In this document: positions 26,480-54,324 of the stretch, one piece after another
Numbering within the stretch: position 1 is the first letter of the stretch
Layout of the letters: each line of letters starts with the position of its first letter
Assembly: GCA_963742245.1 (NCBI GenBank)
Contig: CAVULG010000007.1
Span: 1,003,834 to 1,067,833, forward strand
Reading direction: 5' to 3'
Length of the DNA: 64,000 nucleotides
Source: an uncultured Acidobacteriota bacterium
Lineage (GTDB): Bacteria; Acidobacteriota; Thermoanaerobaculia; UBA5066; Gp7-AA6
Notes under the pieces: generated by a model
Database searches by the model: none
What the model was told of the DNA's origin: nothing
What the model saw: only the letters and a program-made list of their open reading frames with translations
Position numbers and translations under genes: made by a program

Positions 26480-29400
26480 ATGAAACAGATCCGCCGGGTA
26501 TTCCTTTCCCTGGCAGTGCTGCTTTTGTCGATGCCGTTGCGTGCCCAGTGCACTGGTTGCACGAACCTTTCGTTCGGCCCGGCCGTCCCGTGGTACCCGT
26601 CGGGAGACGCTTCCGATCAGTTCGCGGCTGCGGACTTCGATCAGGACGGCGTGCTCGATGTCGCGCTCCCCGGCCCTCAGGGCGGGTTCATTCTGTACTT
26701 CGGCGACGGCCGCGGGACCTTCCGCTCCCACGCCGTGGTCCCGAGCGACGGCGTGCCGGCCCAGTTCGTGGCGGCCGGAGACTTCGACGGCAACGGGTTC
26801 CCGGATCTCGTGGGCAGCAACTTCGGCACGTTCGCGATCCTCCTGGCGGACGGCATCGGCGGCTTCGCGCCATCGACGACGGGATCGAATGGACGCGGAA
26901 GAGTCCTGGTCGCCGACTTCGACCGGGACGGCCGCGTGGACCTTCTCACCGCGGAAAACTGCCTCCTCGGGGAAGGAGACGGCACGCTTTCCCCTCCCCT
27001 GCCGCTCGCGGGCGGGCCGTATTCGATGCTGATCGCCTCGGGCGATTTCAATGGGGACGCGGTCCTCGACGTCGCAGTCTCGAACATCACCGAAGTGCAC
27101 CTCCTGCTCGGCGATGGGACGGGAGGATTCACCCCGGGAACCATGTTTCCTGCCCCGCCCTCGTTCACCGAAGTTCGCAACGGCGCTGCCGCCGACCTGA
27201 CGGGCGACGGAAATCTCGACCTCGCCCTCGCGATCGATGCCAGCGGCGGAGGGCCCTCGTCGGTTCAGGTCCTCGTCGGCGACGGCACGGGCCAGCTCTC
27301 GCCAGGAGCCTCTCTCCCACTGCCCTACTCTTTTTCCTCGATCGTCGCCGCGGATTTCGACGGCTCCGGCGCGATCGACGTTCTAACGACCGGAGGTCAC
27401 CTGTTTGCCGGCATCGGCGGGGGCGCGCTTGGACCCCCGGTCAATTATGGTTACTCGGCGTGGGGCCTCGCGCCGGGTGACTTCAACCGCGACGGCATCA
27501 CGGACGCCGCCGCCGCGATGCAGGGCGTGGGCATCCTGCTCGGACAGGTGTCGGGCGGGCTGGCCGCGCCGATCCCTAGGCCGTACTTCTACGACGTCTC
27601 GGGGGCGGGTATCGCCGACGTCACGGGCGATGGCGTGCCGGACGTCGTCGCTTCGGTTGCCGCCTTCGCGCTCAATAATTCCATCAGCATTTTCCCGGGC
27701 ACCGGCGGCGCCGGCATTGGTCCGCGGGTCGACTACGCGCTCCCATCTCCGGCCTCGGCGATCACCGTCGCCGAGCTCAAGGAGGACGGCGTTTCGGACG
27801 TCGCGGCGTCGACTGGCGGACAGATTGCCCTTCTCCTCTGGGATGGAGCGAACGGCTTCCTCCCTCCGACGTTTCTCGACACGGCGACTGGCGCTTCCGG
27901 CGTCGCGGCGGGGCTTTTCGACGCCGACGCTCACCAGGACCTGATCTCCGTGGGGAGCGGCCTGGACCTGCGGCTCGGCGACGGCACCGGAGGGTTCGAG
28001 GACCCCGTCGTCGTCTCCGACGTTCTCGCACACGCGCTGCTCGCTCTGGACTTCAACGGCGACGGAAAGACAGACATTGCCGCGTTTGGCGGCGCGATTC
28101 ACCTCTTCCTCGGGCACGGCGACGGCACCTTCGACGCGGAGGTCCTCTCTCAGCTGCCCGGCTTCACGGATGTCTACGCGGCCGCCGATTTTGACGGCGA
28201 CGGCTTCCTCGACCTGGCCTTCGGCGGCGTCGGGGAGATCCCGGTGATCTTCGGCGACGGCGGCGGAGGCTTCTCGGCGCCCTTGTTGGTTCCGGCCGGC
28301 AATCTGTCGGGGTACATCAACCCAGCCGCCGGCGACGTCGACGGCGACGGCGATGCCGATCTCCTGGTCGCCGCGCGCGAGGAAGACCTCGCGGTCGTCA
28401 TTACGGGCAACGGCGACGGGACGTTCGAGATCCCGAGCTCCTGGCGCGTCTCCCGCTATCCGGCTCGGCCGGCCCTGGGAGATCTCGATCTCGACGGCAA
28501 GCTCGACCTCGTCACGCTCGGTGACTACGTAAGCGTTCTTCGCAACAGCCAGTGCGAGGCGCGTCGGCTCGGAACGCCGACTGACGTCTCGAAGTGCGCC
28601 GCTCCGAGCCTGCCGTTTCCGATCCAGCCGGCTGTGGGCGTCTACGACGACGGCGGCAATGTGATCACCTGCCATACAGAAGCCGTCTCGGCGTCGATCG
28701 TACCCGGCACGGGTACGCCGGGCGCCCTTCTCGCCGGAACGACGGACGTCGCTTACGTCGCGGGAGTCGCAACCTACGCGGACCTTTCGATCGGGCCGGT
28801 CGGTGCCGGCTACGTGTTGGAGTTTTCGCATCCTGTCCTCGGCGTCACCCGCAGCCGCTCGTTCACCGTGGGCGAGCCGCCTCAGGCACCTCAGGCCACT
28901 AACAGCGGACCGTTCTGCCAGGGGCAGACCCTGAACCTCTATGCGACGACCGTTCCCGGAGCCGTCTATCGATGGACCGGTCCCGGCGGATTCTCTTCGA
29001 CCGCGCAGAGCCCATCGATCCCCGCCGCGGGCGCTGGAGCGGCCGGTGTCTACTCCGTGATCGCACTCGTGGACGGCTGCGCGTCGGCTGCGACGGATAC
29101 GACCGTCGCGATGCTGCCGCCCACTCCGGGTCCGGCGATCCGGGGCGCTCTCCAGATCTGCGCGGGCAGCCGCCTACTCCTCCACGTTGACGACGGAGCC
29201 TTCCATCACACTTGGTTCCACAACGGAGTGCCGATCGAAGGCGCGACCGGCCCGGAGTACTCCGCCGCGGAAATGTCCGTCGGCGACACCGGTGAATACA
29301 CCGCGTCCTCTGCGGACGCGACGGGCTGCACGACCGCCGTTTCGGATCCCGTCACAGTCACTCTGGACTTCTGCCATGCGGAGGCGCACGCGCTGTCGGT

Positions 29401-30286
29401 CGACCCGCAGGGCAACGGAATCCTCGAGCCCGCCGAGACGGCGGTCATCAACCCGACCTGGCAAAACAACGACATCGTCGACCTCGCGTTGTCCGGAGTC
29501 CTCGGAGTCTTCACCGGCCTCGCCGGAGGCAGCTACGTCATCGACGAGGGCACGGCAAACTACGGAGTCCTCGCTCCGGGAGCCCAGGGCGACTGCCTCT
29601 CAAACGCGGACTGCCATGTCGTGACCGTCAGCGCGCCCGGCGCTCGCCCAGCTCTGCATTGGGACGCGTTTCTCGACGAAACGCCCGGGGCGGATCCGGC
29701 GCACACCTGGCAGCTCCACGTAGGCGCGAGCTTTGCCGACGTCCCTCCGGCGCATCCCTTCTATGCCGCGGTCGAGACGGTGCTCCACCATGGAGTGACC
29801 AACGGTTGCACGCCGACGGACTACTGTCCGGCTTCCGGCGTGACGCGCGCCCAGATGGCCGTGCTGCTGTTGAGAGCGCGTTTCGGGCCCCAGTTCGTTC
29901 CGCCGCCGGCAAGCGGAATGCGATTCGCCGACGTTCCTGCCGACGCGTTCGCCGCGGCCTGGATCGAGTACCTCGCGCAGATCGGCGTAACGGCCGGCTG
30001 CGGCAACGGCAACTATTGCCCGAGCACGGTCGTCAACCGCGCGCAGATGGCGGTCTTCCTCCTCCGCACCGCCTTCATCACCCCACCGAATTGCACTGGC
30101 CTGTTCGGAGACGTACCGTGTCCGGACGGCTTCGCCGTCAACTACATCGAGCACCTGCACACCTTGGGCGTCACCGGCGGATGTAACGCCGTTCCGCTGC
30201 TTTACTGCCCGGGCAATCCCAACAAACGCGGGCAGATGGCGGTCTTCTTGACGCGCACATTCGGTCTCACACTCTACGGGCCGTAG
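26480..30286 (+). CDS. 1268-aa secreted FG-GAP/VCBS-repeat protein with Ig-like modules, a conserved middle domain and a triple Cys-containing SLH-like C-terminal cassette
   Basis: It has a signal peptide and many FG-GAP-type repeats (ADFD.DG..D....G....LLGDGTGGF). Two Ig-like modules follow (YRWTGPGGF...GVYSV). The C-terminal cassette spans about 29732-30283. Confidence 0.9.
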   Translation: MKQIRRVFLSLAVLLLSMPLRAQCTGCTNLSFGPAVPWYPSGDASDQFAAADFDQDGVLDVALPGPQGGFILYFGDGRGTFRSHAVVPSDGVPAQFVAAGDFDGNGFPDLVGSNFGTFAILLADGIGGFAPSTTGSNGRGRVLVADFDRDGRVDLLTAENCLLGEGDGTLSPPLPLAGGPYSMLIASGDFNGDAVLDVAVSNITEVHLLLGDGTGGFTPGTMFPAPPSFTEVRNGAAADLTGDGNLDLALAIDASGGGPSSVQVLVGDGTGQLSPGASLPLPYSFSSIVAADFDGSGAIDVLTTGGHLFAGIGGGALGPPVNYGYSAWGLAPGDFNRDGITDAAAAMQGVGILLGQVSGGLAAPIPRPYFYDVSGAGIADVTGDGVPDVVASVAAFALNNSISIFPGTGGAGIGPRVDYALPSPASAITVAELKEDGVSDVAASTGGQIALLLWDGANGFLPPTFLDTATGASGVAAGLFDADAHQDLISVGSGLDLRLGDGTGGFEDPVVVSDVLAHALLALDFNGDGKTDIAAFGGAIHLFLGHGDGTFDAEVLSQLPGFTDVYAAADFDGDGFLDLAFGGVGEIPVIFGDGGGGFSAPLLVPAGNLSGYINPAAGDVDGDGDADLLVAAREEDLAVVITGNGDGTFEIPSSWRVSRYPARPALGDLDLDGKLDLVTLGDYVSVLRNSQCEARRLGTPTDVSKCAAPSLPFPIQPAVGVYDDGGNVITCHTEAVSASIVPGTGTPGALLAGTTDVAYVAGVATYADLSIGPVGAGYVLEFSHPVLGVTRSRSFTVGEPPQAPQATNSGPFCQGQTLNLYATTVPGAVYRWTGPGGFSSTAQSPSIPAAGAGAAGVYSVIALVDGCASAATDTTVAMLPPTPGPAIRGALQICAGSRLLLHVDDGAFHHTWFHNGVPIEGATGPEYSAAEMSVGDTGEYTASSADATGCTTAVSDPVTVTLDFCHAEAHALSVDPQGNGILEPAETAVINPTWQNNDIVDLALSGVLGVFTGLAGGSYVIDEGTANYGVLAPGAQGDCLSNADCHVVTVSAPGARPALHWDAFLDETPGADPAHTWQLHVGASFADVPPAHPFYAAVETVLHHGVTNGCTPTDYCPASGVTRAQMAVLLLRARFGPQFVPPPASGMRFADVPADAFAAAWIEYLAQIGVTAGCGNGNYCPSTVVNRAQMAVFLLRTAFITPPNCTGLFGDVPCPDGFAVNYIEHLHTLGVTGGCNAVPLLYCPGNPNKRGQMAVFLTRTFGLTLYGP

Positions 30287-30295
30287 AATCGGCCC

Positions 30296-31381
30296 GTGCG
30301 CTACCGCTACTCCGACTTCCCGCTCGATCTCCTCCGCGAGCTCCTGACGTACCAGGAGCTCGTCAAGCTCTTCCTGCAGCTCGTCCTCCAGGCGGGAGGC
30401 GACGTCGAAGAGGCGCTGCGGTGGATGAAGTACCTCCAGGATCGCGGCATGATCGACGAGAACATCGACCTCGACGAGTTCCGGCAGGAGCTTCAGAAGA
30501 ACGAGATGGTCGAGGACCGCGGCGGGCAGCTCGCGCTCTCGGCCGCCGGCGAGCGGCGCATCCGGCGTTCCGCCCTCGAGGAGATATTCACCTCGCTCAC
30601 GAAGTCGGGATCCGGCTACCACGCGGTGCCGCGCGCGGGCGGGGGCGGCGAGCTGCTGCCCGAGACGCGGCCCTACGAGTTCGGCGACAACCCGAGCGCG
30701 ATCGACGGCGTCCGGTCGATCGGCAACGCCGTGCGCCGAGACGCCGCCGACATCGCCCTGAAGGCCGACGACTTCGAAGTGCACGAGGAGGAGCACCTGA
30801 CCTCCTGCGCGACCGTCCTTGCGATCGACATCTCGCACTCGATGATCCTCTACGGCGAGGACCGCTTCACGCCGGCCAAGAAGGTCGCTTTAGCGATGGT
30901 CGAGCTGATCCAGTCCAAGTACCCGAAGGACTCGATCGACGTGCTGCTCTTCGGCGACGACGCCAGGCGCGTCCCAATCTCCGAGATCTCGAAGACCCAG
31001 GTCGGGCCGTTCCACACCAACACCAAGGCCGGTCTCGCGCTCGCGCGCAAGCTCCTCGTCCATCGCAAGAACCCCAACAAGCAGGTCCTCCTCATCACCG
31101 ACGGCAAGCCCTCGGCAATCTGGGAGCGCGGCCGGCTCTACAAGAACCCGTTCGGGCTGGATCTGAAGATCGTCAACCGCACGCTCGAAGAGGCCGACGC
31201 CTGCCGGCGCGACGGAATCACGATCACGACCTTCATGATCGCGACCGACACCTATCTCGTCGAGTTCGTGGACAAGCTGACGAAGATCAACCGCGGCCGC
31301 GCGTACTACGCGTCGCCGTACAACCTGGCGGAGTTTCTGTTTACGGACTACATCCGGAACCGGAAGAAGTTCCTGCACTGA
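30296..31381 (+). CDS. Cytoplasmic VWA-domain protein with an intact MIDAS motif, the predicted partner of the AAA+ ATPase at 24128
   Basis: The MIDAS motif is VLAIDISHSM (DxSxS), followed by ...LITDGKPSA. There is no signal peptide. The GTG start lies 9 nt after the FG-GAP gene stop. Confidence 0.85.
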   Translation: MRYRYSDFPLDLLRELLTYQELVKLFLQLVLQAGGDVEEALRWMKYLQDRGMIDENIDLDEFRQELQKNEMVEDRGGQLALSAAGERRIRRSALEEIFTSLTKSGSGYHAVPRAGGGGELLPETRPYEFGDNPSAIDGVRSIGNAVRRDAADIALKADDFEVHEEEHLTSCATVLAIDISHSMILYGEDRFTPAKKVALAMVELIQSKYPKDSIDVLLFGDDARRVPISEISKTQVGPFHTNTKAGLALARKLLVHRKNPNKQVLLITDGKPSAIWERGRLYKNPFGLDLKIVNRTLEEADACRRDGITITTFMIATDTYLVEFVDKLTKINRGRAYYASPYNLAEFLFTDYIRNRKKFLH

Positions 31382-31518: not shown

Positions 31519-33645
31519 GTGAAGTTTTGCAACGCGGTCCTGTGTCTCGTCTTCGCCGCGCTCGCCGGTCCCGCTCTCGGTCAGTCACCCCCGCTCCAGC
31601 CCGAGTTCCAGGTCTCGCAGGGCACGCTCTACTACCAATACTCCTACGGGGTGGCGATCGATCGCACCGGCCAATTCGTCGTCTGCTGGTCGAGCTATAC
31701 GGAAACGGATTCCAACTACGACGTGCTGGGCCGCCTCTACGACCCGGCCGGCGCGCCGGTCGGGGGCGAGTTCGAGATCGACGCGTCCACGGCCAATCAG
31801 ATCGGCGGGGACGTCGCCAAGGATGCGTCGGGAGCGTTCGTCGTCGTGTGGCAGGACGCGGACACCCAGCTCCAGGCCCGGCGTTTCGACGCCGACGGGA
31901 CGCCGCGGGGCCCGGCGTTTCCGGTGACGACTTCGACGCTCCCGGTCTCGGACTCCTACGTCGCGTCCGACGCCTCGGGCCGCTTCGCGGTGGCCTGGAC
32001 GCGGCTCGACCCGAGCTCGTCCTTCGACGTGGTCGCGCGGCTCTTCGACTCCGCGGGCGCCCCGCTGACCGGTGAGCTGCCGATCAACTCCTACACGACG
32101 GGGTCGCAGCGCACGCGCGGCGTGGGAATGTCCAACAACCATTTCGTCCTGGTTTGGGGAGGCGACGGCTTCGGAGGCCCCGGCGTCTGGACCCGCAGTT
32201 TCGTCGCCAATGGCACGCCGTTGACGGACGACCTCCAGGTCAACCAGGGATCCCTGCTCTTCAACCCCCCTGAAGCGAGTGTTGCGATGAGTGAGCCCGG
32301 AACGTTCGTGGTGGTCTGGGACGGCCTCGTCGCTGCGAACACCCTCGGGGTCTTCGGGCGGCGCTACGATCTCGCCGGCCTGCCGATCGACGACCAGTTC
32401 ATGGTCAACACGACCTACACGACGGGCTACCAGGGATCCTCTCGCATCGCGGCAGACCGCCACGGCAACTTCATCGTCTCCTGGACCGGGAGGCCGAGCG
32501 ACGGCGACGCCGCCGGAGTTCTCGCACGCACGTACGACCGCTTCGGCGTCGCGCAGAGCGCGGACTTCGTCGTCAACACGACGGCGACCGGCTATCAGTA
32601 CAACTCGCAGGTCGCGCTCAACGAGGCGGGCACGTTCGTCGTCACCTGGTCATCTCCCGATGCGTCTTACTACGGCGTGGTCGGGCGCCGGAGCGCCGCG
32701 CGGGCCGCGCCGGAGATCACGATCCAGAACGCCGTGCTCCGGCAGGGAAGCACGGATTCCGTAATCGAACCCGGCGACGCGGTGCTGCTCCGGACCGCGT
32801 GGGCCAACGAATCGACGACTCCACTCGGTCTCACCGGAGCCGCCGCCGATTTCTCCGGCCCCCCCGGGGCGACGTACACCACGATCGTGGCCACGGCCGA
32901 CTACGGAGCGATCGCGGCTTCGTCGACCGGCACCTGTCTCGACGGCGCCGGCAACTGCTATGCCGTCGAAGTCTCGGCCCCCGCGGTGCGCCCGGCCCAG
33001 CACTGGGACACGAAGCTCCAGGAGAGTCTCTCGATCGGCATGCCTCACACGTGGGTCCTTCACATTGGCGAGAGCTTTCCTGACGTCCCGACCAGCCACA
33101 TCTTCTATGCGTTCATCGAAACGCTCTTCCACAACGGCATCACCGGCGGCTGCGCGGGAGGCGACTACTGCCCGGGCAACCCGGTCACGCGCGCCCAGAT
33201 GGCCGTCTTCCTGCTCAAGTCCAAGTTCGGCGAAGCGCACGTTCCGCTCCCTTGCACGGGGACCGTCTTCACCGACGTCCCTTGCACCGGCGGGCCGTTC
33301 GATCCGTGGATCGAGGAGCTCGCCGCCTTGCAGATCACGGGAGGCTGCGGCGGAGGGCTCTACTGCCCCAACAACCCCGTTAACCGGCAGCAGATGTCCG
33401 TGTTCCTGCTCAAAACCCTCGAGGGCGCCGCCTATGTGCCTCCGCCCTGCACCGACCCGCCGCCGTTCGACGACGTGCCGTGCCAGAACGGGTTCTCGAT
33501 CTGGATCAACGAGCTCGCCTCCCGCGCCATCACGGGAGGCTGTTCCGTGACGCCGCCTCTCTACTGTCCGGCCAATCCCAACAACCGCGGCCAGATGGCG
33601 GTCTTCCTGACCAAGACTTTCGGACTCGTTCTTTACGGGGGTTGA
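31519..33645 (+). CDS. Paralog A: signal peptide, seven 'EFQVN' modules, middle domain and triple Cys-SLH-like cassette
   Basis: The GTG start at 31519 is preceded by GCAGGAGG. The signal peptide is VKFCNAVLCLVFAALAGPALGQ. Seven units of about 50 aa show a recurring [ED]F.VN...T...Q....VA.d..G.FVV.W........g...R.[FY]d..G.P pattern. The cassette spans 33073-33642. Confidence 0.85.
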   Translation: MKFCNAVLCLVFAALAGPALGQSPPLQPEFQVSQGTLYYQYSYGVAIDRTGQFVVCWSSYTETDSNYDVLGRLYDPAGAPVGGEFEIDASTANQIGGDVAKDASGAFVVVWQDADTQLQARRFDADGTPRGPAFPVTTSTLPVSDSYVASDASGRFAVAWTRLDPSSSFDVVARLFDSAGAPLTGELPINSYTTGSQRTRGVGMSNNHFVLVWGGDGFGGPGVWTRSFVANGTPLTDDLQVNQGSLLFNPPEASVAMSEPGTFVVVWDGLVAANTLGVFGRRYDLAGLPIDDQFMVNTTYTTGYQGSSRIAADRHGNFIVSWTGRPSDGDAAGVLARTYDRFGVAQSADFVVNTTATGYQYNSQVALNEAGTFVVTWSSPDASYYGVVGRRSAARAAPEITIQNAVLRQGSTDSVIEPGDAVLLRTAWANESTTPLGLTGAAADFSGPPGATYTTIVATADYGAIAASSTGTCLDGAGNCYAVEVSAPAVRPAQHWDTKLQESLSIGMPHTWVLHIGESFPDVPTSHIFYAFIETLFHNGITGGCAGGDYCPGNPVTRAQMAVFLLKSKFGEAHVPLPCTGTVFTDVPCTGGPFDPWIEELAALQITGGCGGGLYCPNNPVNRQQMSVFLLKTLEGAAYVPPPCTDPPPFDDVPCQNGFSIWINELASRAITGGCSVTPPLYCPANPNNRGQMAVFLTKTFGLVLYGG

Positions 33646-33649: not shown

Positions 33650-35782
33650 ATGATGCGAACAGCTCGCCCGATAGCCCTCCAAGGGTTCGCGGTCTTGCTC
33701 CTGGCAACGCTCGCCCTCGCCCCACCCGCCCTCGCCCAAACGCCGCCGATGCTTCCGGAGTTCCAGGTCAACACGCAGACCGACGACTACCAGGAGTGCA
33801 ACGGCGTGGCGGTGGACAAGACCGGCCGTTTCGTCGTGGCCTGGTCGGGATACGACGCGACGGCGCAGAGCGACCTGGCGTTCGGGCGCCTCTACGACCA
33901 GTCCGGAGCTCCCGAGACCGGGGAGTTTCCGTTCGGCACTCCTTCCGGAGTGCCCAACCAGTCCGAAGCGACCGTCGCCAAGGACGCCTCCGGGAGGTTC
34001 GTCGCGGTGTGGCAACAGGGCGACGACGTCTTCGCGCGTCGGTTCGACGTCGACGGCACACCGCTCGGCGACGCGTTCCCGGTCAATACGTCGACCCTGA
34101 GCGCCGATTCGCCGCAGGTGGACTCCGACGATTCCGGCAATTTCGCCATCGTCTGGACGGCCACCGGCACGAGCGACGAAGTCGCGGCACGGATCTTCGA
34201 CAGCTCCGGAGCCGCGGTCACGGACGAGTTCATCGCGAATTCCTATACGACCAACATCCAGGATGCCGGGGGCATTGCGGCATACGGCAGCGGCTTCGTC
34301 GTTACGTGGGGCGGCCAGGGCGCGGGCGGTCCCGGGATCTTCGCGCGAGCCTTCGACGCCGCAGGGGCCCCGCTCGGCGGCGACTTCAAGGTCAACGAGG
34401 GGCTTCTCCTCAACGCGGTGACCGGGAGCGACGTAGCCGTGGACTCCGTCGGCAATTTCGTCGTCGTCTGGGCAGGGTTCGTGGCCCCGAGCTACGAAGG
34501 CATCTTCGCGCGGCGCTACAACCCGGCGGGCTTTCCGTTGGGCGGAGACTTCCCGGTCAGCGAGGCGGCCACCGACACCCAGGGCGGCGCCCACGTGAAG
34601 TCCGACCACGCGGGCAACTTCATCGTGGCCTGGACGCACCAGGACGGCGACGGCGACGGGTCCGGCATCGTCGCGCGGCGCTACAACCGCTTCGGACAGC
34701 CGGTGACACCGGCGTTCGTCGTCAACGAGGGGACGGACGAGGATCAGTACCACGCCAACGTCGCGCTGAATGACGCCGGTGATTTCGTCGTGACCTGGAG
34801 CTCGCCGGACGCCGATTACTACGGCACCTTCGGGCGGCGCAGCGGCGTGGGCGCTTCGTCGCCGATCACCGTGGCGACCGATACCGTCGGCAACCTGAGC
34901 TCCGTGCTCGAGCCGGGCGAGTCCGTGCGGGTGGAAACAGCCTGGGTCAACCATACGGATTCCACGGTCGCCGTGACCGGAACCGCGACCGGCGTCTCTG
35001 GACCGGCGAGCGCGAGCGTCACGCTCGACGACGCGGCGGCCGACTACGGAATGATCACGGCGGACTCCATCGGACCCTGCAACGGGACGGGAGACTGCTA
35101 CGCGATCACCGTGTCGGATCCCGCCGTGCGCCCGGTTCAGCACTGGGACGTGCTGCTGCACGAGACCCTGAGCGTCGGCGTGCCCCACACCTGGGTGCTT
35201 CACGTCGGCGAAAGTTTCCCCGACGTGCCGACCGACAACATCTTCTATGCCTTCATCGAGACCCTCTTCCACAACGGCGTGACCGGAGGCTGCTTCGGCG
35301 GCGGCTACTGCCCGACCAATCCCGTGACCCGCGCCCAGATGGCCGTGTTCCTCCTCAAGGCCAAGTTCGGCTCTGCCCACATCCCTCCGCCCTGCACCGG
35401 GCTCGTCTTCGGCGACGTCCCCTGCACGGGCAGCCCCTTCGATCCCTGGATCGAGGAGCTCGCGCGCCTCGGGGTCACGGGTGGCTGCGGAGGCGGTTTC
35501 TATTGCCCCGGCAACAACGTGACGCGTCAGCAGATGGCGGTGTTCCTGCTCAAGACACTGGAGGGATCGGCGTATGTCCCTCCGCCCTGCGTCGTACCGC
35601 AGTTCGACGACGTCCCCTGCGACAACGGGTTCGCCATCTGGATCAACGAGCTCTACGCCCGCGGAATCACGGGCGGTTGCTCGGCCATGCCCCCTCTGTA
35701 CTGCCCAACCAATCCCAACAACCGCGGCCAGATGGCCGCCTTCCTCTCCAACATGTTCGGACTCGCGCTCTATGGGGGTTGA
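33650..35782 (+). CDS. Paralog B, same architecture as paralog A
   Basis: It starts 4 nt after paralog A. It has a signal peptide (...ALAPPALAQ), seven modules, and a cassette ending SNMFGLALYGG. Confidence 0.85.
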   Translation: MMRTARPIALQGFAVLLLATLALAPPALAQTPPMLPEFQVNTQTDDYQECNGVAVDKTGRFVVAWSGYDATAQSDLAFGRLYDQSGAPETGEFPFGTPSGVPNQSEATVAKDASGRFVAVWQQGDDVFARRFDVDGTPLGDAFPVNTSTLSADSPQVDSDDSGNFAIVWTATGTSDEVAARIFDSSGAAVTDEFIANSYTTNIQDAGGIAAYGSGFVVTWGGQGAGGPGIFARAFDAAGAPLGGDFKVNEGLLLNAVTGSDVAVDSVGNFVVVWAGFVAPSYEGIFARRYNPAGFPLGGDFPVSEAATDTQGGAHVKSDHAGNFIVAWTHQDGDGDGSGIVARRYNRFGQPVTPAFVVNEGTDEDQYHANVALNDAGDFVVTWSSPDADYYGTFGRRSGVGASSPITVATDTVGNLSSVLEPGESVRVETAWVNHTDSTVAVTGTATGVSGPASASVTLDDAAADYGMITADSIGPCNGTGDCYAITVSDPAVRPVQHWDVLLHETLSVGVPHTWVLHVGESFPDVPTDNIFYAFIETLFHNGVTGGCFGGGYCPTNPVTRAQMAVFLLKAKFGSAHIPPPCTGLVFGDVPCTGSPFDPWIEELARLGVTGGCGGGFYCPGNNVTRQQMAVFLLKTLEGSAYVPPPCVVPQFDDVPCDNGFAIWINELYARGITGGCSAMPPLYCPTNPNNRGQMAAFLSNMFGLALYGG

Positions 35783-35800: not shown

Positions 35801-36006
35801 GTGAAGTCTCTCAGCCTCTCGATCCTCGCTCTCGCCTGCTGCTTTGCCCTGCCGTCAGCGGCTCTCGGACAAATCCCGGCCTTCCTCCCCGAGTTCCAGG
35901 TCAACACGGCTGCGCCGGACTACATCACCTTCAAAACGTCGCGATGGGACACTACGGCGAGTTCGTCGTGGTCTGGACCGAAAAATTCCTGAGGAGGGAC
36001 GCGTGA
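35801..36006 (+). pseudogene. 5' remnant of a paralog (signal peptide plus first module) with an internal frameshift
   Basis: The frame from 35801 reads VKSLSLSILALACCFALPSAALGQIPAFLPEFQVNTAAPDY. The rest of the module (HLQNVAMGHYGEFVVVWTEK) continues in another frame and stops at 36006, overlapping the GTG start of paralog C. Confidence 0.5.
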
Positions 36007-38165
36007 AGATCGGCGCCCGATTCGCGGTTCTCGTGTGCACGGGACTTGTCGTCGCCGAAGGCGCTCGCGCCCAGGTCCCGGTCTTCCTGCCCGAGTTCCC
36101 GATCGTCGCGAACGAAACGGTGTACCGAGCCTTGAACGGCATCGTCATGAACCCGGGAGGTGAATTCGTCGTGGTCTGGGGACAGGACAACGGAGGGGGC
36201 AGCGCGTACGACGTGATGGGCCGACGCTTCGATGGCCTGACGGTACCCCTCGGCGACCCCGCCCCGTTGACCGGCGCAACCAGCGGTCGGCAATGCTGCG
36301 CGTCCGTCGCGAAGAACGCCTCGGGCACATTCGTCCTCGTGTGGAACGACGTCGGCGACGACCTCCGCGGCCGGCGATTCGAGGCGGACGGCACGCCGCA
36401 AGGCGGCAGCTTCCAGGTCAATTCGTCGAGCGCCCCCGGCACTTCTTACTTCGGCCTTCCCGATGTCGCTCTGGACGCCTCCGGCAACTTCGTCGTGACC
36501 TGGAGTTTGTTCGGCGCGGGTGGCGACTTCAGCGTAATGGCCAGGCGCTTCGACCGCGCCGGAGACCCGCTCGGCGACGACTTCGTGGTCAACCAGTACA
36601 CCACCGGCTACCAGTCCGGCTCGCGAGTGGCTGCGTCGTCCGGAGGATTCGTCGTGACCTGGATCGGCGAGGGCAACGGCACGACGCATGGTGTTTTCGG
36701 CCGGCTGTACGACGCCGCGGGAGACCCCGTGACGAACGATTTCCCGGTTCATGCAACTCCCCCCGTCTCTCCCGGCCTTCCGGGCGTGGCGATGAATGCG
36801 GCCGGCGACTTCGTCGTCGCGTGGCATGACAACGGGGACTACACGTCCAGCACCGTGCAGGCACGACGGTGGAACGCGTCCGGAGCTCCGGCGAGCGGGG
36901 TGTTTCCCGTCAGCGGCGGGTCGCCCGGCGTCTTCAACTCGGGTCCGCACTTGGCCTCGGATTCCGCCGGCAACTTCCTGGTCGTCTGGACCCGGTCGAT
37001 CCAGGCTCTCGGTGAGGGGATTTCCACGCCCGTGGGGCGCTTCTTCGGAGCCGACGGGAGCCTGGGCGGCAACGAGTTCCAGATCAATGAAGTCACCACC
37101 GGATCCCAGTCCAATCCGCTGGTCTCCTTGAACGACGACGGAGCCTTCGTCGTGGCGTTTTTGAGCAGTCCCAGCTACCTGGTGTACGAGAACAAGGGCC
37201 GGAAGAGCGGGTTGCGCTCGAGTCCGGTGATCGTGGTCGACCCGAACGCGGGCGTCTCGTCGCCGAACGGTGGGGGCAACGGCATCCTCGAGCCTGGAGA
37301 GACGGTGGTCCCGCGGACCGCATGGACCAACGACACCGCGGCAGGAACGACCGTATCGGGCACCGCCGTCGGATTCACCGGCCCTCCGGGCGCCGCCTAT
37401 GCCATCCTCGACAGCACATCCTCGTACGGGACGATACCGGCCGGAACGACCACCACATGCGTCGGCGGCGTGGATTGCTATTCGATCTCCGTCTCGGATC
37501 CGACCGTACGGCCATCTCCCCACTGGGACGCCCGCCTCCAGGAGCTGCTGAGCGTGGGTGTGCCTCACACCTGGAACCTCCACGTGGGCGGGAGCTTCGC
37601 CGACGTGCCTACCGGGAACCTCTTCTATCCGTTCATCGAAAACCTCTTTCACAACAACGTCACTGCAGGCTGTGCGGGAGGCGGTTACTGCCCCAACAAT
37701 GCGGTCACGCGCGCGCAGATGGCGGTGTTTCTCCTGAAGGCAAGGTTCGGCGCCGCGCACGTGCCGCCGACCTGCACCGGAACCGTGTTCGATGACGTTC
37801 CCTGTTCGGGCGGCCCCTTCGACCCGTGGATCGAGGAGCTCGCGGCGCTCAACGTCACGGGCGGTTGTGGCGGCGGCAACTACTGCCCCAACAACCCGGT
37901 CACCCGTCAGCAGATGGCCGTGTTCCTTTTGAGGACTCTCAAGGGCTCCGGATACCTCCCGCCCGATTGCTCGGGCATCTTCGACGACGTTCCGTGTACG
38001 CCGGGAGAGGGGTTCTCCGACTGGATCGAGGAGCTCGCCAACCGCGGCATCACCGGCGGCTGCTCCGTCACCCCGCCCCTCTACTGCCCGACCAATCCGA
38101 ACAACCGGGGTCAGATGGCCGTCTTCCTGACCAAGACGTTTGGCCTCGTGCTCTACGGGGGTTGA
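36003..38165 (+). CDS. Paralog C, same architecture with more divergent modules
   Basis: The GTG start at 36003 is preceded by GAGGAGG. The signal peptide is VKIGARFAVLVCTGLVVAEGARAQ. It has seven modules and a cassette ending TKTFGLVLYGG. Confidence 0.85.
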   Translation: MKIGARFAVLVCTGLVVAEGARAQVPVFLPEFPIVANETVYRALNGIVMNPGGEFVVVWGQDNGGGSAYDVMGRRFDGLTVPLGDPAPLTGATSGRQCCASVAKNASGTFVLVWNDVGDDLRGRRFEADGTPQGGSFQVNSSSAPGTSYFGLPDVALDASGNFVVTWSLFGAGGDFSVMARRFDRAGDPLGDDFVVNQYTTGYQSGSRVAASSGGFVVTWIGEGNGTTHGVFGRLYDAAGDPVTNDFPVHATPPVSPGLPGVAMNAAGDFVVAWHDNGDYTSSTVQARRWNASGAPASGVFPVSGGSPGVFNSGPHLASDSAGNFLVVWTRSIQALGEGISTPVGRFFGADGSLGGNEFQINEVTTGSQSNPLVSLNDDGAFVVAFLSSPSYLVYENKGRKSGLRSSPVIVVDPNAGVSSPNGGGNGILEPGETVVPRTAWTNDTAAGTTVSGTAVGFTGPPGAAYAILDSTSSYGTIPAGTTTTCVGGVDCYSISVSDPTVRPSPHWDARLQELLSVGVPHTWNLHVGGSFADVPTGNLFYPFIENLFHNNVTAGCAGGGYCPNNAVTRAQMAVFLLKARFGAAHVPPTCTGTVFDDVPCSGGPFDPWIEELAALNVTGGCGGGNYCPNNPVTRQQMAVFLLRTLKGSGYLPPDCSGIFDDVPCTPGEGFSDWIEELANRGITGGCSVTPPLYCPTNPNNRGQMAVFLTKTFGLVLYGG

Positions 38166-45989: not shown

Positions 45990-47659
45990 ATGCACGAAGA
46001 GACGGCGCTCATCGCGACGATCGCCGGCGGACTCGGACTCGCGTTCCTCTTCGGGCTCGTCGCCGTGCGTCTCAGGCTGCCGCCCCTCGTCGGCTATCTG
46101 CTGGCCGGCGTGGCCGTCGGGCCGTTCACGCCCGGGTTCGTGGCCGACGCGGGGCTCGCGTCGCAGCTCGCCGAGATCGGCGTCATCCTGCTGATGTTCG
46201 GCGTCGGGCTGCACTTCTCGCCCGCCGACCTCTTGGCCGTGCGGCGCATCGCCGTGCCCGGGCGCCATCGCGCAGATCGCGGCGGCCACGGTCCTCGGCG
46301 TGTTCGTCTCGCACCTCTGGGGCTGGTCGTGGGGATCGGGACTGGTGTTCGGCCTCTGCCTGTCGGTCGCGAGCACCGTCGTGCTGCTGCGAGCGCTCGA
46401 GGACCGCGGCAGCGCTCGAGACCGGCGACGGACGGATCGCCGTCGGCTGGCTGATCGTCGAGGACCTCGCTGACGGTGCTCGTCGCTCGTGCTTCTGCCG
46501 GCGCTCGGCGACGCCGCTCGGCGGAGACGCGGCGAGCGGCCGCGCCCGACGCGGACCCGTCGGCGCGGCGATCGCGCTGGCACGCTCGCCAAGGTCGCGG
46601 CGTTCGTCGGCGCTCATGCTCGTCGTCGGACGCCGGGCGGTCCCCTGGCTCCTCGAGCGCGTCGCCCGCACCGGGTCGCGCGAGCTCTTCACGCTGGCCG
46701 TGCTCGCGATCGCCCTCGGCATCGCCGTCGGGCGCTGCGTCGCTCTTCGGCGTCTCGTTCGCGCTGGGCGCGTTCTTCGCCGGCGTCGTGATCAGCGAGT
46801 CCGACCTCGCCACCAAGGCCGCCTCCGACGCGCTGCCGCTCCAGGACGCTTTCGCCGTGCTCTTCTTCGTGTCGGTCGGGATGCTGTTCGATCCGATGAT
46901 CCTCGTGCGCGAGCCACTCGAGGTGCTCGCGCGTCGTCGCTGATCATCATGGTCGGCAAGTCGCTCGCGGCGCTCGCCATCGTCCTCGCGTTCCGCCAGC
47001 CCCTCCACACCGCGCTCACCATCTCGGCGAGCCTGGCGCAGATCGGCGAGTTCTCGTTCATCCTCGCCGCTCTCGGCCTGTCGCTGGGACTGCTGCCTCC
47101 CGATGCCCAGAGTCTGATCGTCGCCGGCGCGCTGATCTCGATCACGCTCAACCCACTCATGTTCGCCGCGATCGCCTCGATCGAGTCCCGGCTCGCGACG
47201 CAAAGGCCCGCCCGGATGACACAGGACATCGCGATTCCGAGGCAATTACGCGCGCACACGGTGCTCGTCGGACACGGCCGCGTCGGAGGGCGGGTGGCCG
47301 CCGCGCTCGGTGCCCACGGCCTGCCATTCGTCGTGGTGGAGGCCGACCTCGACAGCGCGACCGTCCTCCTCAAGCAGGGCATTCCGGTCGTTTACGGCGA
47401 CGCGGCCCGGCCCGGCGTGCTCGAGCACGCCGGTGTCAAGGACGCCCGCCTCCTCGTGATCACGGCCCCGGACGCCTTCCAGGCCCGGGCCGCGATCGAG
47501 CTGGCGCGACGCGCGCAACCCGAGATCGACATCGTCGTTCGCACCCACAGCGACGCCGAGCTCGAATTCCTCGAGGGCAAGAACGTCGGAAGGGCGGTCA
47601 TGGGCGAGCACGAGCTCGCCGAAGCCATGGCCCGCTACGCTCTGGAAAGACTCGGGTAG
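45990..47659 (+). pseudogene. Cation:proton antiporter (CPA2, YbaL/KefB-like) with a C-terminal RCK/TrkA-N domain, broken by about 6 frame shifts between 46260 and 46930
   Basis: The N-terminus is MHEETALIATIAGGLGLAFLFG...GVILLMFGVGLHFS. The homologous sequence continues in alternating frames (ORFs 45990.., 46476.., 46616..). It is intact from about 46940 through the Rossmann-type HTVLVGHGRVGG domain. Confidence 0.8.
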
Positions 47660-47686: not shown

Positions 47687-48436
47687 ATGCCTGTTCTCCG
47701 CGCTCTATTCGTTGGCTTCGCCCTCACGGCTCTGATCGGCCTTGGAACCGCATCCGCCCAGTCTTACGGCCTCGGGGACCAGGTCCTCACGTTGCCTCCG
47801 GCAGCGTTTCGAGACTCGAATAGTTCCGCCCACAGCTTCTTGAATTTGTTCATCGATGCGTATCTCTACCCAAGCTTGACGGATGGAACAGCTGACCTGA
47901 TGGCTCCCCTGACGCTCCCGAACGGCGCCGAGATCTTTCAGATGTGCCTCTACAGCAATCTCCCCGGATCCGGCTCAGCGAGCGCCGGGATCAGCGTATC
48001 GAAGCTCGTTCCAGGCGGGGAAAGCCCTTTCGTGTCAATCGTCCCGGGTTCCGTGCTTTTCGACAGCACCGCGACCGGCTACCGCGTCCTGTGTACGGAT
48101 CCCTTCTCGTACGTTTTTCACGACTCCGCGGATGTCGACGGGGTTCCTGGTGGGGATCTCATCGCCCACTACGTCCGCGCCACCTTGAGCGGTGCATCCG
48201 CCGGTTTTGGCGGCGTCCGCATCGCCTGGCGCCGCCAGGTCTCCCCGCCGCCCGGGTCGCCGACGTTCGGCGACGTCCCGCCCCTGGACCCGGCCTTCTC
48301 GTTCATCGAGGCCCTCGTCGCCTCGGGAGTCACGGTGGGATGCGGTGGCGGGAACTACTGCCCCGACAGCCCGATCACGCGGCGGCAGATGGCCGTTTTT
48401 CTGGCGAAAGCGCTGGGCCTGCACTGGCCGTTCTGA
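47687..48436 (+). CDS. Small secreted protein with an unknown N-terminal domain and a single Cys-SLH-like repeat
   Basis: ATG at 47687 is preceded by CAGGAGGA, and it has a signal peptide. The C-terminus is FGDVPPLDPAFSFIEALVASGVTVGCGGGNYCPDSPITRRQMAVFLAKALGL. Confidence 0.75.
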   Translation: MPVLRALFVGFALTALIGLGTASAQSYGLGDQVLTLPPAAFRDSNSSAHSFLNLFIDAYLYPSLTDGTADLMAPLTLPNGAEIFQMCLYSNLPGSGSASAGISVSKLVPGGESPFVSIVPGSVLFDSTATGYRVLCTDPFSYVFHDSADVDGVPGGDLIAHYVRATLSGASAGFGGVRIAWRRQVSPPPGSPTFGDVPPLDPAFSFIEALVASGVTVGCGGGNYCPDSPITRRQMAVFLAKALGLHWPF

Positions 48437-48469: not shown

Positions 48470-48486
48470 GGTGAGCGAGTCCTGCC

Positions 48487-50195: not shown

Positions 50196-50271
50196 TGGCT
50201 GTGGGGGGTGGACTCGAACCACCGACCTTCCGGTTAACAGCCGGACGTTGTACCAGCTCAACTACCCCACA
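50196..50271 (-). tRNA. tRNA-Asn(GTT): tRNA-Asn (anticodon GTT), CCA encoded
   Basis: The manual cloverleaf is as follows. Acceptor TGTGGGG/CCCCACA, D stem GTTG/CAAC, and anticodon stem TCCGG/CCGGA with loop CTGTTAA. The variable region is AGGTC, the T arm is GGTGG-TTCGAGT-CCACC, and the discriminator is G followed by CCA. Confidence 0.9.
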
Positions 50272-50284
50272 GCAGCGAGAACCA

Positions 50285-51142: not shown

Positions 51143-51174
51143 GCGGGCAGGCTAATGCAGGCCGGACCGAAGCC

Positions 51175-54100
51175 CTACGGAATCTCGAATGCCTTCACGA
51201 AGAAAGTCGCGAGCTGCTCCCGGCGCACTCCGTCGGTCGGGCAGAAACGGCCGCCGCCGCAGCCGGCGGTGATTCCCGACGCCGCGAGCGCGTTGATCCA
51301 ATCGACGTAAGGGCCTCCGGGACAGGGCACGTCGGAAAAGACCGTCCCCTGGCATGGCGGCGGCGCATATCCCCCCACGTGCGTGCGCTTCAAAAGCAGA
51401 ACGGCCAGCTGCGCCCGCGTCAAAGGCTGCGCCGGGCAGTAGTTGCCGCCGCCGCAGCCGGCGATGAGGCCCGTCCCGTAGATCGAGTTGATCCAGTCGA
51501 CGAACGGGCCTCCGGGACACGGGACATCCTGGAACACGGTTCCGCTGCAGGACGGGGGCACGTACGTGCCGTTGTAACCCTTGGAGAAGAAGACCGCCGC
51601 CTGCCCGCGCGTGACGAGCGCCGCCGGACAGAAGGACGCGACGCCGCAACCCGCGCTCATCCGGTCGCGGAAGAACCGGGCGATGTCGTCATGATGCGGA
51701 TTCGAGCCCGGCACATCGAGGAAGTCGGTGACCCAGACCGCGGGCAACGTGGCGAACAAGCCGCCCGGGTTCGTCACGGTCAGGTCGTAGAGCGAAGCCG
51801 GCGCAAGAGGCGGGGTCGAGATCTGGATGCGGGTGGAATCGAGAACGTCGCCGGAGGCGTCGGCGCCTCCGAGCGTGGCGGTGGCACCGGTCAGGAAGAA
51901 GGCACCCGTCACGGTCGATTCGGTTCCTCCCGCTGCAGGGCCCGAGAATGGCCCCATTCCCTGAATCACCGGCTGTGGTGTCCGCGTCGGCGTGTTGGTG
52001 GCGGTGATGCGCCCGCCGGTGCGGGTCTGGGTCGGGGTCGGGCCGGTCGGCGTCGGCGAAGGCGTGATCGTGGCGGTCCGGGTGGCGCTCGGCAAGCTGG
52101 GTGTCGGCGACGGCACTCCGTCCGCGGCGATGCGGGCCACGAACGCATCGTGGCCGCCCTGCTGCTCGAGCCCGGGGCCGACGAGCGGGAGAAAGGTCGC
52201 GGCCGACGACGTGGTGTAGCCCGCGACGTAAGCGTCGCCCGACGCGGCGACGGCGACCGCGGTCGCTCCGTCGAAGCCCTCGCCCCCGATGAATCCGCAG
52301 TAGTCGACGGACGCACCGCTCGCGGCAATCCGTCCGACGAATGCTTCGGACTGTCCGTTGGAGGTCAGACGCGGACCCGAAACGACGGCAAAGGCGGGAT
52401 CCCAGGTCATCCCGGCAAAGACGGCGCGTCCGGCGGCATCGACCGCCAAGCCGTTGCACTCAGCGCCCGCGCCGCCGCCGATGTAACCGCAGTAGGCCAG
52501 GGCGGCTCCCCCGGGCTGGATCTTCGCCACGAAACCAAGGTCTCCAAAGCTCGATGTCGTGAGGGAAGGCCCCACGACCACCGGGAAGGAATCCTCCCTC
52601 GAGCTCGTGGTTCCGCCGACATAGGCGGCTCCGGCGCCATCGACGGCGATTCCGTAAACGTAGTCTTGGCCCGTCCCGCCGATGTAGCCGCAGTAGTCGA
52701 GGCCGGTCCCGGTCGCGTTCACGCGAGCGACGAAGGCGTCGGCCGGACCGGGTTGATGAGACACGAGCGCCGGCCCGACGACAACCGGGAAGGTCGCTTC
52801 GCTCGACGTCGTCGACCCCCCGACGTAGGCGTTTCCGTCACCATCGACGGCGACGGACTCCGCGAAATCCCCATCCTCCCCGGCGATGTAGCCTGCGTAG
52901 ACGAAGCCAGTGCCATCCGCCTTCACCTTCGCGATGAAGGCGTCAACATCACCCCCGTTCGTCAGGCTCGGACCCACCTCAGCAGGAAAGCCCGGGTTCC
53001 CAAAAGCGTTCGGATTGGTGGTGCCAACGACGTACGCATGCCCTTCCGAGTCCACGGCGACAGCATCTGCCCCGTCGCCGCCCGTGCCGCCGATGAACCC
53101 CGAGTACTCGAGCGTCGTTCCCGAGAAACTCAGCCGCGCGACAAAGGCATCGCCTCCCCCTCCGCAGGTCGTCTCGGGCCCGACCGTGGTCGGAAAGCCC
53201 GTTCCGCAGTAGGTGCTCCCGGTGACGTACGCCCGACCCAGGGCATCCACTGCCACCCCCGAGGCGTCGTCATTCCCGATACCACCGAGGTAGCCGCAGT
53301 ACTCGAGCCCGCTTCCGTCGGCCCGGATCTTCGCGACGAAAGCATCGTCGTAGCCTCCGTTGAACGTGAGGTCCGGCCCGACGTCGACCGGCATGCCGGC
53401 GGCATTCGAGTGTCCCGCGACGTACGCATTGCCCTGGGCATCGACCGCGATCGCCTCTGGAACGTCCGCGCCCGGCCCGCCGATGTATCCCGCATACACG
53501 AAGATCGCCGGGTCGATGACGAGCTCGCGGCCGTGGTCATACGGTCCGACGTCGAATCGGACGCGCTTCGACTCCGGATCGAGCGCGTAGGCGACCGTGA
53601 CGGCCCGCCGTGTTCCGCCGACTTCCTGAAAGGCGACGGGACGGTCTTCGAAGAAGCCACCCGCCGGTGTCCGCACTTCGAGACGCCCGCCCTCGTCGAC
53701 ACGCACCTCCTGTGCGCCGTGGTAGTCGATTCCGATCGTGTCCGGATCGCTACCGGCAGCGACGGTGAACGTGGCCTTGAGGCGGCGATCGTCGCCGGTA
53801 TATTCGAGGTCGATGCCCGGCCAGAGCCCCCGGTACCGGATGGCCGCATAGGCGGGGACACCGGTTGCCCAGCTTTCGCGCGGTCCGCGAAAGTAGCTCA
53901 CGGCGCTCGTCGATCGACCGACCGGCTCCCAGGCGCCCCTCCGGGCGCCGACGAACTCGGTCTTGACGGCCCATCGCTTGGCCGGGCTGTCCTTACGGCT
54001 CGCCGGGATCACGGTGCGATCCCGGTCGGCTGGCTGGTGAGAAGCGTCCGTCAGAGCAAATACAACCCCGTCCGAACCGAAAAAGACCGAAGTGTTCAGA

Positions 54101-54324
54101 CCCTGGACCGCGAAGGCCGCACGCGGATCGAGCTGGCCGCGATTCGCGACGAATGCCAGAGGAACTGGCTGGCGCGGCAGCGCCGTCGCGCGGGCACGAA
54201 TCGCACTGGCCGAGGCTTGCGGAAGGCGCGCATCACGGCGATCAGCACGACGAGCGTCCCACAGGACCAGACACGCGAGCGCTCCGAGCGCGACCAGGGT
54301 TCGTACGTGAACCGAACGTCCCAC
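51175..54324 (-). CDS. 1049-aa secreted SBBP beta-propeller-repeat protein with an IPT/TIG domain and the triple Cys-SLH-like cassette
   Basis: The N-terminal PLAFVANRGQLD...region is DUF7948-like. It has many Y.GYIGG.G.D.a.aiAVD..GnAYV.G.T repeats (SBBP) and a Thr/Pro linker. An IPT-like segment follows, then three repeats ending FFVKAFEIP. Confidence 0.85.
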   Translation of the reverse strand: MGRSVHVRTLVALGALACLVLWDARRADRRDARLPQASASAIRARATALPRQPVPLAFVANRGQLDPRAAFAVQGLNTSVFFGSDGVVFALTDASHQPADRDRTVIPASRKDSPAKRWAVKTEFVGARRGAWEPVGRSTSAVSYFRGPRESWATGVPAYAAIRYRGLWPGIDLEYTGDDRRLKATFTVAAGSDPDTIGIDYHGAQEVRVDEGGRLEVRTPAGGFFEDRPVAFQEVGGTRRAVTVAYALDPESKRVRFDVGPYDHGRELVIDPAIFVYAGYIGGPGADVPEAIAVDAQGNAYVAGHSNAAGMPVDVGPDLTFNGGYDDAFVAKIRADGSGLEYCGYLGGIGNDDASGVAVDALGRAYVTGSTYCGTGFPTTVGPETTCGGGGDAFVARLSFSGTTLEYSGFIGGTGGDGADAVAVDSEGHAYVVGTTNPNAFGNPGFPAEVGPSLTNGGDVDAFIAKVKADGTGFVYAGYIAGEDGDFAESVAVDGDGNAYVGGSTTSSEATFPVVVGPALVSHQPGPADAFVARVNATGTGLDYCGYIGGTGQDYVYGIAVDGAGAAYVGGTTSSREDSFPVVVGPSLTTSSFGDLGFVAKIQPGGAALAYCGYIGGGAGAECNGLAVDAAGRAVFAGMTWDPAFAVVSGPRLTSNGQSEAFVGRIAASGASVDYCGFIGGEGFDGATAVAVAASGDAYVAGYTTSSAATFLPLVGPGLEQQGGHDAFVARIAADGVPSPTPSLPSATRTATITPSPTPTGPTPTQTRTGGRITATNTPTRTPQPVIQGMGPFSGPAAGGTESTVTGAFFLTGATATLGGADASGDVLDSTRIQISTPPLAPASLYDLTVTNPGGLFATLPAVWVTDFLDVPGSNPHHDDIARFFRDRMSAGCGVASFCPAALVTRGQAAVFFSKGYNGTYVPPSCSGTVFQDVPCPGGPFVDWINSIYGTGLIAGCGGGNYCPAQPLTRAQLAVLLLKRTHVGGYAPPPCQGTVFSDVPCPGGPYVDWINALAASGITAGCGGGRFCPTDGVRREQLATFFVKAFEIP

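Follow-up and report, generated by a model that had tools for sequence, protein, structure and literature searches.

We examined a cysteine-bearing C-terminal module in a 64-kb stretch of contig CAVULG010000007.1 from an uncultured Acidobacteriota bacterium (the window, here meaning the whole 64,000 nucleotides analysed). An earlier note on this DNA had assigned the module to the C-termini of nine exported proteins, referred to here as P1 to P9, and had likened it to the S-layer homology (SLH) domain. A hidden Markov model (HMM) was made from 16 copies picked by regular expression and run on the whole window translated in all six frames. It gave 27 raw matches that correspond to 25 copies of a ~50-amino-acid module, two frameshifted copies being split. 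All copies lay within the nine genes, with none elsewhere in the 64 kb; eight of the genes have three copies each and P8 has one. The per-module domain E-values of 1e-10 to 1e-31 rule out chance or low complexity as the source of these matches, and the claim of a common C-terminal module in nine genes was therefore borne out. The run of modules at the C-terminus, which we term the cassette, also had the described features: the usual triple repeat, the inter-module linker motif PPPCTG.VF.DVPC, and the C-terminal ending ...NNRGQMAVFLTKTFGL.LYGG-stop, also written ...FGL.LYGG. The expected number of about 10 cysteines per cassette was found in P2, P3, P4, P7 and P9; P1 has eight because the first linker pair is missing, and P8 has two. 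In P2, cysteines are located at residues 473/480, 545/551, 579/589, 610/616, 644/655 and 675/683.

All nine genes had been described as open reading frames (ORFs). Both the ORF list and direct translation confirmed this for seven of them (P1, P2, P3, P4, P7, P8 and P9), but P5 and P6 are frameshifted and do not form continuous ORFs. N-termini resembling Sec-type signal peptides were found in all of the window proteins in which the N-terminus is readable (8/8). The nine genes are organised as follows.

26480-30286, plus strand: P1; signal peptide, FG-GAP, Ig_7, middle domain (predicted beta-sandwich; 29387-29731) and three Cys-SLH modules (29732-30286); Pfam FG-GAP_3 1.4e-55, Ig_7, SLH 38.6 bits.
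31519-33645, plus strand: P2; signal peptide, predicted seven-bladed beta-propeller, middle domain (predicted beta-sandwich; 32731-33075) and three Cys-SLH modules (33076-33645); SLH 39.8 bits, AlphaFold2 (AF2) model, Foldseek.
33650-35782, plus strand: P3, a paralogue of P2; predicted propeller, middle domain (34871-35215) and cassette (35216-35782); Pfam, module HMM.
36003-38165, plus strand: P4, a paralogue of P2; predicted propeller, middle domain (37251-37595) and cassette (37596-38165); Pfam, module HMM.
38284-40453, plus strand: P5, P2-type architecture with at least five frameshifts; cassette at ~39890-40453; in-frame stops, tblastn frame changes, split modules.
40481-42652, plus strand: P6, P2-type architecture with at least three frameshifts; middle domain (41751-42095) and cassette (42096-42652); tblastn, module HMM.
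42741-44471, plus strand: P7; signal peptide, N-terminal domain, Cys-rich acidic repeat, middle domain (43497-43874) and three Cys-SLH modules (43875-44471); SLH 45.8 bits, TIGR02232 1.1e-10.
47687-48436, plus strand: P8; signal peptide, ~170-amino-acid domain of unknown type and a single Cys-SLH module (48266-48412); SLH 30.2 bits.
51175-54324, minus strand: P9; DUF7948, SBBP beta-propeller repeats, IPT/TIG and three Cys-SLH modules (51175-51723), with no middle domain; Pfam DUF7948 2.8e-52, SBBP, TIG, SLH 29.4 bits.

All nine window proteins scored above the gathering cut-off of Pfam family PF00395 (22.7-45.8 bits vs 20.8), which represents the SLH domain (PROSITE PS51272), and 67 of 69 sampled homologues matched the same family at E<=1e-4. 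NCBIfam contained no more specific model; its sole matches fell within the SLH portion of an unrelated multi-domain model. We used an alignment of the middle domain and cassette from 35 sequences (A1) as a profile against solved structures. This profile matched Sap (6BT4) with an E-value of 7e-12 and with all three modules aligned; it also matched 3PYW and SbsB (4AQ1), and gave a weak match to OmpM (8BYM; E 2e-3). A tblastn search of a plasmid collection recovered canonical Bacillota triple-SLH proteins with 26-38% identity over up to 96% of the cassette; all were canonical Bacillota "S-layer homology domain-containing proteins", and the Cys form of SLH was not found in that collection. An AF2 model of the last 329 residues of P2 (mean predicted local distance difference test score, pLDDT, 87; predicted template-modelling score, pTM, 0.81) consists of a beta-sandwich followed by six helices arranged as three pairs (151-159/179-191, 216-224/244-256 and 281-289/311-322). 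When the helical part of this model was compared with solved structures using Foldseek, it matched 3PYW (E 1.3e-8, target-normalised TM-score 0.82, root-mean-square deviation 2.9 A), followed by 6BT4 and then by a dozen SpaA-SLH structures (E about 1e-5). The AF2 model of full-length P2 gave the same 3PYW match. We conclude from the profile matches and the model that the cassette is a trimer of true SLH domains, predicted to adopt the three-pronged spindle fold with pseudo-threefold symmetry and a three-helix core. The homology is stronger than had been claimed, given the Pfam scores and the profile matches to Sap, SbsB and OmpM, and the suggestion of an SLH-like fold is supported by the predicted spindle.

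Trp13, Gly29 and Arg43 are markers of a ligand-competent SLH groove (Blackler et al. 2018, PMC6081394), with Trp13 serving as an aromatic platform where helix 1 begins. We scored the equivalent positions in 631 non-redundant modules drawn from the window, 120 database matches and 82 fetched loci. The equivalent of SLH-Gly29, which is the second Gly of the motif G-[IV]-T-[GA]-G, was conserved in 100% of modules, as was the equivalent of SLH-Arg43, in first, middle and last modules alike. The position aligned with Trp13 is not Trp; helix 1 starts with Phe (74-90%) and/or Tyr, and a Trp is found three residues past the start of helix 1 in 92-96% of modules 2 and 3. The Glu of the canonical TRAE motif is replaced by Gln in 95-99% of modules (TRAQ, TRQQ or NRGQ), such that the terminal Glu is largely absent. 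This change is not disqualifying, because SLH3 of SpaA is naturally TRAQ and the TRAE Glu makes no contact with the ligand (PMC6081394).

Cysteines occupy SLH positions 30 and 36, within the sequence G-C-x-G-G-x-Y-C-P, in 97-100% of modules. The earlier note described the canonical G-Y-x-D-G-x-F segment as having been replaced. Cysteines are indeed present at the two flanks of this loop, but there is no wholesale replacement: the loop after GIIxG has the canonical length in modules 1 and 2, and usually has ~2 extra residues in module 3. Modules 2 and 3 contain a second Cys pair, with one cysteine on each side of the initial F-x-D-V-P (PPxC...DVPC). The cysteines of this linker pair were both present in 144 modules and both absent from 74, with a single cysteine in 7 (Fisher p = 2e-50), and the loop pair persisted in the 74 modules that lack the linker pair. 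Because the linker cysteines covary and the loop pair persists without them, the pattern favours two separate intramolecular pairs over a metal site made of four cysteines. In SpaA, ligand binding is accompanied by a flip of the Gly29 backbone (PMC6081394). Since the Cys30-Cys36 pair directly adjoins Gly29, we infer that a staple at this position may pre-organise or stabilise the groove loop.

Two other observations relate to the cysteines. In module 3 of P5 (40268-40426) and module 3 of P6 (42477-42631), the linker Cys pair has moved to a position just before helix 1, in the sequence DV..C-P-G-[LI]-V-C, and the same variant is found in database homologues P0054 and P0075. In addition, Pfam family DUF7569 (PF24453) matched 16 residues inside a Cys-SLH module of homologue P0004 (residues 88-103; 25.4 bits, sub-threshold) and residues 186-201 of homologue P0069 (31.3 bits, above the 27-bit cut-off); this family may share the G-C...Y-C-P loop motif.

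A middle domain of ~115-130 amino acids precedes the cassette in P1-P7 and is absent from P8 and P9, in agreement with its reported presence in seven of the nine proteins. This domain is confidently predicted by AF2 to be an Ig-like beta-sandwich. A Cys pair and the motifs RP..HWD and LH.G.SF are invariant in it, and its conserved His/His/Asp may constitute a site for a metal or ligand. The middle domain matched no Pfam family, even at E<=10, and its fold gave only generic matches with Foldseek (E about 1e-3). Among the fetched loci, it lies ahead of the cassette in 101 of 109 ORFs, with a gap of one amino acid to module 1 in 99 cases. When the middle domain by itself was used as a profile, 18 short fragments were all that was recovered, and this search is uninformative as to where else the domain occurs.

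Three architectural classes recur among proteins with the module. The first, represented by the 101 ORFs with a middle domain, consists of a variable N-terminal region, the middle domain and three SLH modules. The second has IPT/TIG followed by three SLH modules, as in P9. The third has a small domain of unknown type with a "W.RQVSPAP" motif and a single SLH module, as in P8; related loci contain ~10 further proteins of this type, and the ~170-amino-acid N-terminal domain of P8 matched no Pfam family. P8-type proteins would need to trimerise to make an SLH spindle. Small exported proteins of this type (seen also in loci L064, L040, L067, L029 and L001) are often encoded beside triple-cassette genes.

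The N-terminal regions are more varied. The N-terminal ~370 amino acids of P2 (31585-32670), which have equivalents in P3-P6, contain seven repeats of ~50 amino acids, and P2-P6 constitute five tandem paralogues. AF2 predicts that this region is a beta-propeller, which we judge to be seven-bladed from the seven sequence repeats. The predicted propeller of P2 resembles sialidase-type propellers and the propellers of PLL and CV39L lectins; the seven-repeat region matched no Pfam family, and the LIC12048 lipoprotein model of NCBIfam matched it only weakly, below threshold. Among 69 representative homologues, the partner domains identified with Pfam were IPT/TIG (19), FG-GAP, GSDH, PhoX, a Vgb-lyase-type propeller and others, together with reprolysin proteases, the proprotein-convertase P domain, beta-helix and DUF4434. 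The presence of the cassette on unrelated N-terminal domains therefore holds both in the window and among homologues. One of the domains that had been named in the window was not recovered: Pfam reported no LTD in P7, but the Cys-rich repeat of that protein was reported (TIGR02232 / DUF4215).

Among the window paralogues, the cassettes are 57-80% identical and the N-terminal parts 37-51% identical; for P3 and P2, the values are 80% for the cassette and 51% for the N-terminal part. We considered recent gene conversion as the source of the high cassette identity in P1-P4 and P7. At identical residues, the frequency of identical codons was 0.50-0.65 in the cassette and 0.52-0.55 in the N-terminal parts, a similarity that rules out recent conversion. 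Because synonymous-codon identity is alike in the two regions, this comparison indicates that the cassette is held by purifying selection and has not been homogenised by recent conversion.

The cassette is widely distributed. A word-indexed search gave 5,131 clusters (90% identity) at E<=1e-3 among 5,335 candidates. Of the best 120 of those clusters, all but one were pre-annotated as PF00395 and 114 were triple-module, and the loop Cys pair was kept in 354 of their 360 modules. An exhaustive search of 1.84 billion 50%-identity representatives yielded 101,093 matches at E<=1e-3, which correspond to SLH at large, 33,404 at 1e-10 and 5,297 at 1e-30. Among the best 150 representatives, 135 had exactly three modules and a few had six or nine; the cassette was C-terminal in 131 and N-terminal in ~10; the Cys pair was kept in 478 of 491 modules; and the middle domain was present in 50. 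In a collection with one genome per species, at least 578 loci encode a relative. The best 80 of these were all in metagenome-assembled genomes (MAGs) of Acidobacteriota/Thermoanaerobaculia, representing 37 different MAGs as judged by isolate names, several of which hold 4-5 of these loci each. Two or more complete cassette genes were present in 19 of the 81 loci (~7 kb each) that were fetched, and one locus, L002, is syntenic with the window. Judged by these relatives, the window most probably derives from an uncultured Thermoanaerobaculia-like acidobacterium. The module had been proposed to be lineage-specific; its occurrence across thousands of clusters of proteins, and across no fewer than 37 MAGs of Acidobacteriota/Thermoanaerobaculia, extends it beyond close relatives, and that part of the earlier note is not supported. 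Assignment to the SLH family is already in databases (PF00395 / "S-layer homology domain"). By contrast, searches of the accessible literature found no description of a Cys-containing SLH domain or of SLH in Acidobacteriota, and none of systematic TRAQ, of the fused beta-sandwich domain, or of the size of the expansion in this acidobacterial class; the cysteines in the LysBT1 paper (PMC12285257) are unrelated. The suggestion that the Cys variant and the middle domain had not previously been described is consistent with these searches.

Among known systems, Sap of B. anthracis (3PYW; 6BT4 with a pyruvylated secondary cell wall polymer (SCWP) unit) is the best match to the cassette in both sequence profile (E 7e-12) and fold (TM-score 0.82). 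Like the cassette, Sap has three tandem modules of ~55 amino acids, and the two align at the F-x-D-V-P start, the G-[IV]-x-x-G loop with Gly29, Phe/Tyr-x-Pro, and T-R-A-x with Arg43. By contrast, the SLH region of Sap has no cysteines, whereas the cassette has cysteines at positions 30 and 36 and extra pairs at the starts of modules 2 and 3; Sap has TRAE where the cassette has TRAQ, TRQQ or NRGQ; and the SLH modules of Sap are N-terminal in a Gram-positive S-layer protein, whereas those described here are C-terminal, belong to Acidobacteriota and are joined to passengers that are not S-layer-like. SpaA and SlhA of Paenibacillus alvei (6CWC, 7SV4; PMC6081394) have the same fold, and SlhA is a large protein, not of the S-layer type, in which the triple SLH is C-terminal, as in the proteins described here. 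Of the three groove markers of SpaA, Gly29 and Arg43 are invariant in the cassette. These two residues are kept in all three modules, whereas only two of the three SpaA grooves are functional. SpaA lacks disulfides and binds 4,6-pyruvyl-ManNAc, whereas the cassette has conserved Cys pairs and a ligand that is putative. Gram-positive wall-anchored exoproteins as a group (Sap, SpaA, SlhA and SbsB) share the triple SLH and the signal peptide, but their hosts are monoderm with a peptidoglycan-linked SCWP, whereas the Acidobacteriota/Thermoanaerobaculia relatives are expected to be diderm.

The OmpM / Slp / SlpA tethers of diderm Terrabacteria (8BYM) provide a case of SLH acting in a diderm envelope, albeit one that matches the cassette weakly; they establish that the periplasm is a possible site of SLH action and that modified peptidoglycan can serve as the ligand in place of a pyruvylated polymer. 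OmpM is a trimer, each chain of which combines a single N-terminal SLH with a coiled-coil stalk and a beta-barrel in the outer membrane, whereas the cassette has three C-terminal SLH modules and is not associated with a barrel. The N-terminal parts of the window proteins are FG-GAP, beta-propeller, Ig-like and IPT/TIG domains, which sets them apart from this class of tether, and OmpM is reported to be absent from Gracilicutes (bioRxiv 10.1101/2021.05.31.446380).

Based on the homology and the conserved groove residues, we propose, with a probability of roughly 60%, that the cassette is a disulfide-stapled SLH trimer that would hold exported proteins non-covalently on an anionic glycan of the producer's own envelope. 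Because the proteins carry Sec-type signal peptides, they would be exported and their cysteines would be oxidised outside the cytoplasm. The Cys30/Cys36 pair would then staple the groove-lining loop next to SLH-Gly29, and the second pair would bracket the F-x-D-V-P N-terminal segment of modules 2 and 3. In Sap and SpaA, the anionic (pyruvyl-ketal) sugar is bound by Gly29, Arg43 and an aromatic residue with which helix 1 begins. The three inter-domain grooves of the cassette appear to keep these residues, and for this reason anchoring to an anionic envelope glycan is probably the function. As putative receptor we envisage a polymer linked to peptidoglycan, or some other polysaccharide of the envelope, and the cargo of beta-propellers, FG-GAP proteins and enzymes would be retained on the envelope, either at the periplasmic face of the wall or at the cell surface. 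The diversity of the partner domains fits an anchoring module.

Several considerations weigh against this proposal. No csaB (pyruvyl transferase) or wall-polymer genes were seen among the scanned ORFs of the 64-kb window. In a diderm cell, a protein exported by the Sec pathway stays in the periplasm unless it is secreted further, and surface display is for that reason not established. The ligand may differ from the canonical one, because Trp13 is not conserved as Trp and the TRAE Glu is systematically Gln. The host lineage lies on the Pseudomonadati/Gracilicutes side (kingdom Pseudomonadati), and since SLH and CsaB are reported to be practically absent from Gracilicutes (bioRxiv 10.1101/2021.05.31.446380), a canonical pyruvylated wall polymer cannot be assumed. 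Lastly, what the data show is the homology, the predicted fold, the conservation of groove residues, the export signals, the modular distribution and the purifying selection; from these we infer disulfide formation, binding, the ligand and the localisation of the proteins.

The same features could be read as those of a lectin-like or carbohydrate-binding module (CBM)-like domain for glycans that are not the producer's own, such as biofilm matrix, exopolysaccharide, other cells or substrates, with the cassette holding enzymes and propeller lectins on their substrate. Such a function would suit partners that are enzymes or lectin-like (PhoX, GSDH, reprolysin-type proteases, DUF4434 and beta-helix), the resemblance of the P2 propeller to PLL and CV39L lectins, and a lineage outside the clades with established SLH and CsaB wall anchoring; TRAQ and the missing Trp13 would also allow a different ligand. 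We nonetheless consider it unlikely, since every SLH trimer that has been characterised has the wall polymer or modified peptidoglycan of the producer itself as its ligand (PMC6081394; bioRxiv 10.1101/2021.05.31.446380), Gly29 and Arg43 do not vary in any of the three modules, and a single cassette on dozens of paralogues with unrelated passengers is the classic pattern of a self-anchor.

It is also conceivable, although with a very low probability, that the cassette serves chiefly in protein-protein assembly or oligomerisation, for example in scaffold docking or in a lattice, with the cysteines providing rigidity or intermolecular cross-links. Consistent with this idea, single-module proteins such as P8 would have to trimerise, as reported for single-SLH proteins such as LysBT1 (PMC12285257), and some cassettes come in multiples of three (six or nine modules). 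However, the strictly conserved residues are those of the glycan groove, covariation of the cysteines inside each module or linker is what intramolecular pairs would produce, and no partner scaffold gene was apparent among the scanned ORFs of the window. Ligation of a metal (a Zn or Fe site) by the cysteines, in place of disulfides, would account for the four cysteines in each of modules 2 and 3, but is the least probable explanation and barely credible, because module 1 and P8 have only two cysteines, 74 modules lack both linker cysteines yet retain the loop pair, as would be expected of two independent pairs, neither spacing (C-x5-7-C or C-x9-10-C) is of the CxxC type, and the proteins are exported.

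A broader version of the envelope-anchor proposal is that diderm Thermoanaerobaculia run a large SLH display of their own, in which many proteins per genome would be attached through a disulfide-locked trimer to a new anionic glycan, often by way of a beta-sandwich adaptor. This version is speculative, and we would sooner doubt it than accept it.

tblastn with P3 and P4 revealed at least five frame changes in P5 and at least three in P6, which are single-base indels that mostly adjoin short G/C runs. The orthologous genes are also split in the closest relatives, which are long-read MAGs. Because other window genes look shifted and the orthologues are split in long-read MAGs, assembly error is at least as likely as pseudogenisation. 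Two such cases lie downstream in the window: a Kef-type antiporter gene (45990-47659) is likewise spread over frames, and at 59875-62811 the C-terminal part of KdpA and KdpB read as a single 978-amino-acid ORF. P1 is flanked by a gene for a MoxR-like AAA_5 ATPase (23954-25696) and a VWA-domain gene (30296-31381). In the syntenic locus L002, a VWA gene is found directly upstream of the SLH-gene array, and P1 may have been inserted between the members of an AAA/VWA gene pair. Unconnected with the SLH cassette is an ORF at 4424-5692 that encodes a DndB-like (DNA-sulfur-modification-associated) / GmrSD_N-like domain and lies upstream of a LemA gene.

The systems in which SLH anchoring is understood belong to Bacillota and diderm Terrabacteria. 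The data described here indicate that one class of Acidobacteriota carries thousands of SLH-cassette proteins with conserved Cys pairs, in which enzymes, propellers and adhesin-like domains are the fusion partners. If the cassette is merely a sequence variant with the usual function, this amounts to routine subfamily annotation. If it does bind an envelope polymer, there would be an unrecognised wall- or surface-glycan receptor in Acidobacteriota, and the cassette would offer a handle for predicting the exoproteomes of uncultured soil and sediment Acidobacteriota, as well as a natural disulfide-stabilised SLH scaffold for display applications.

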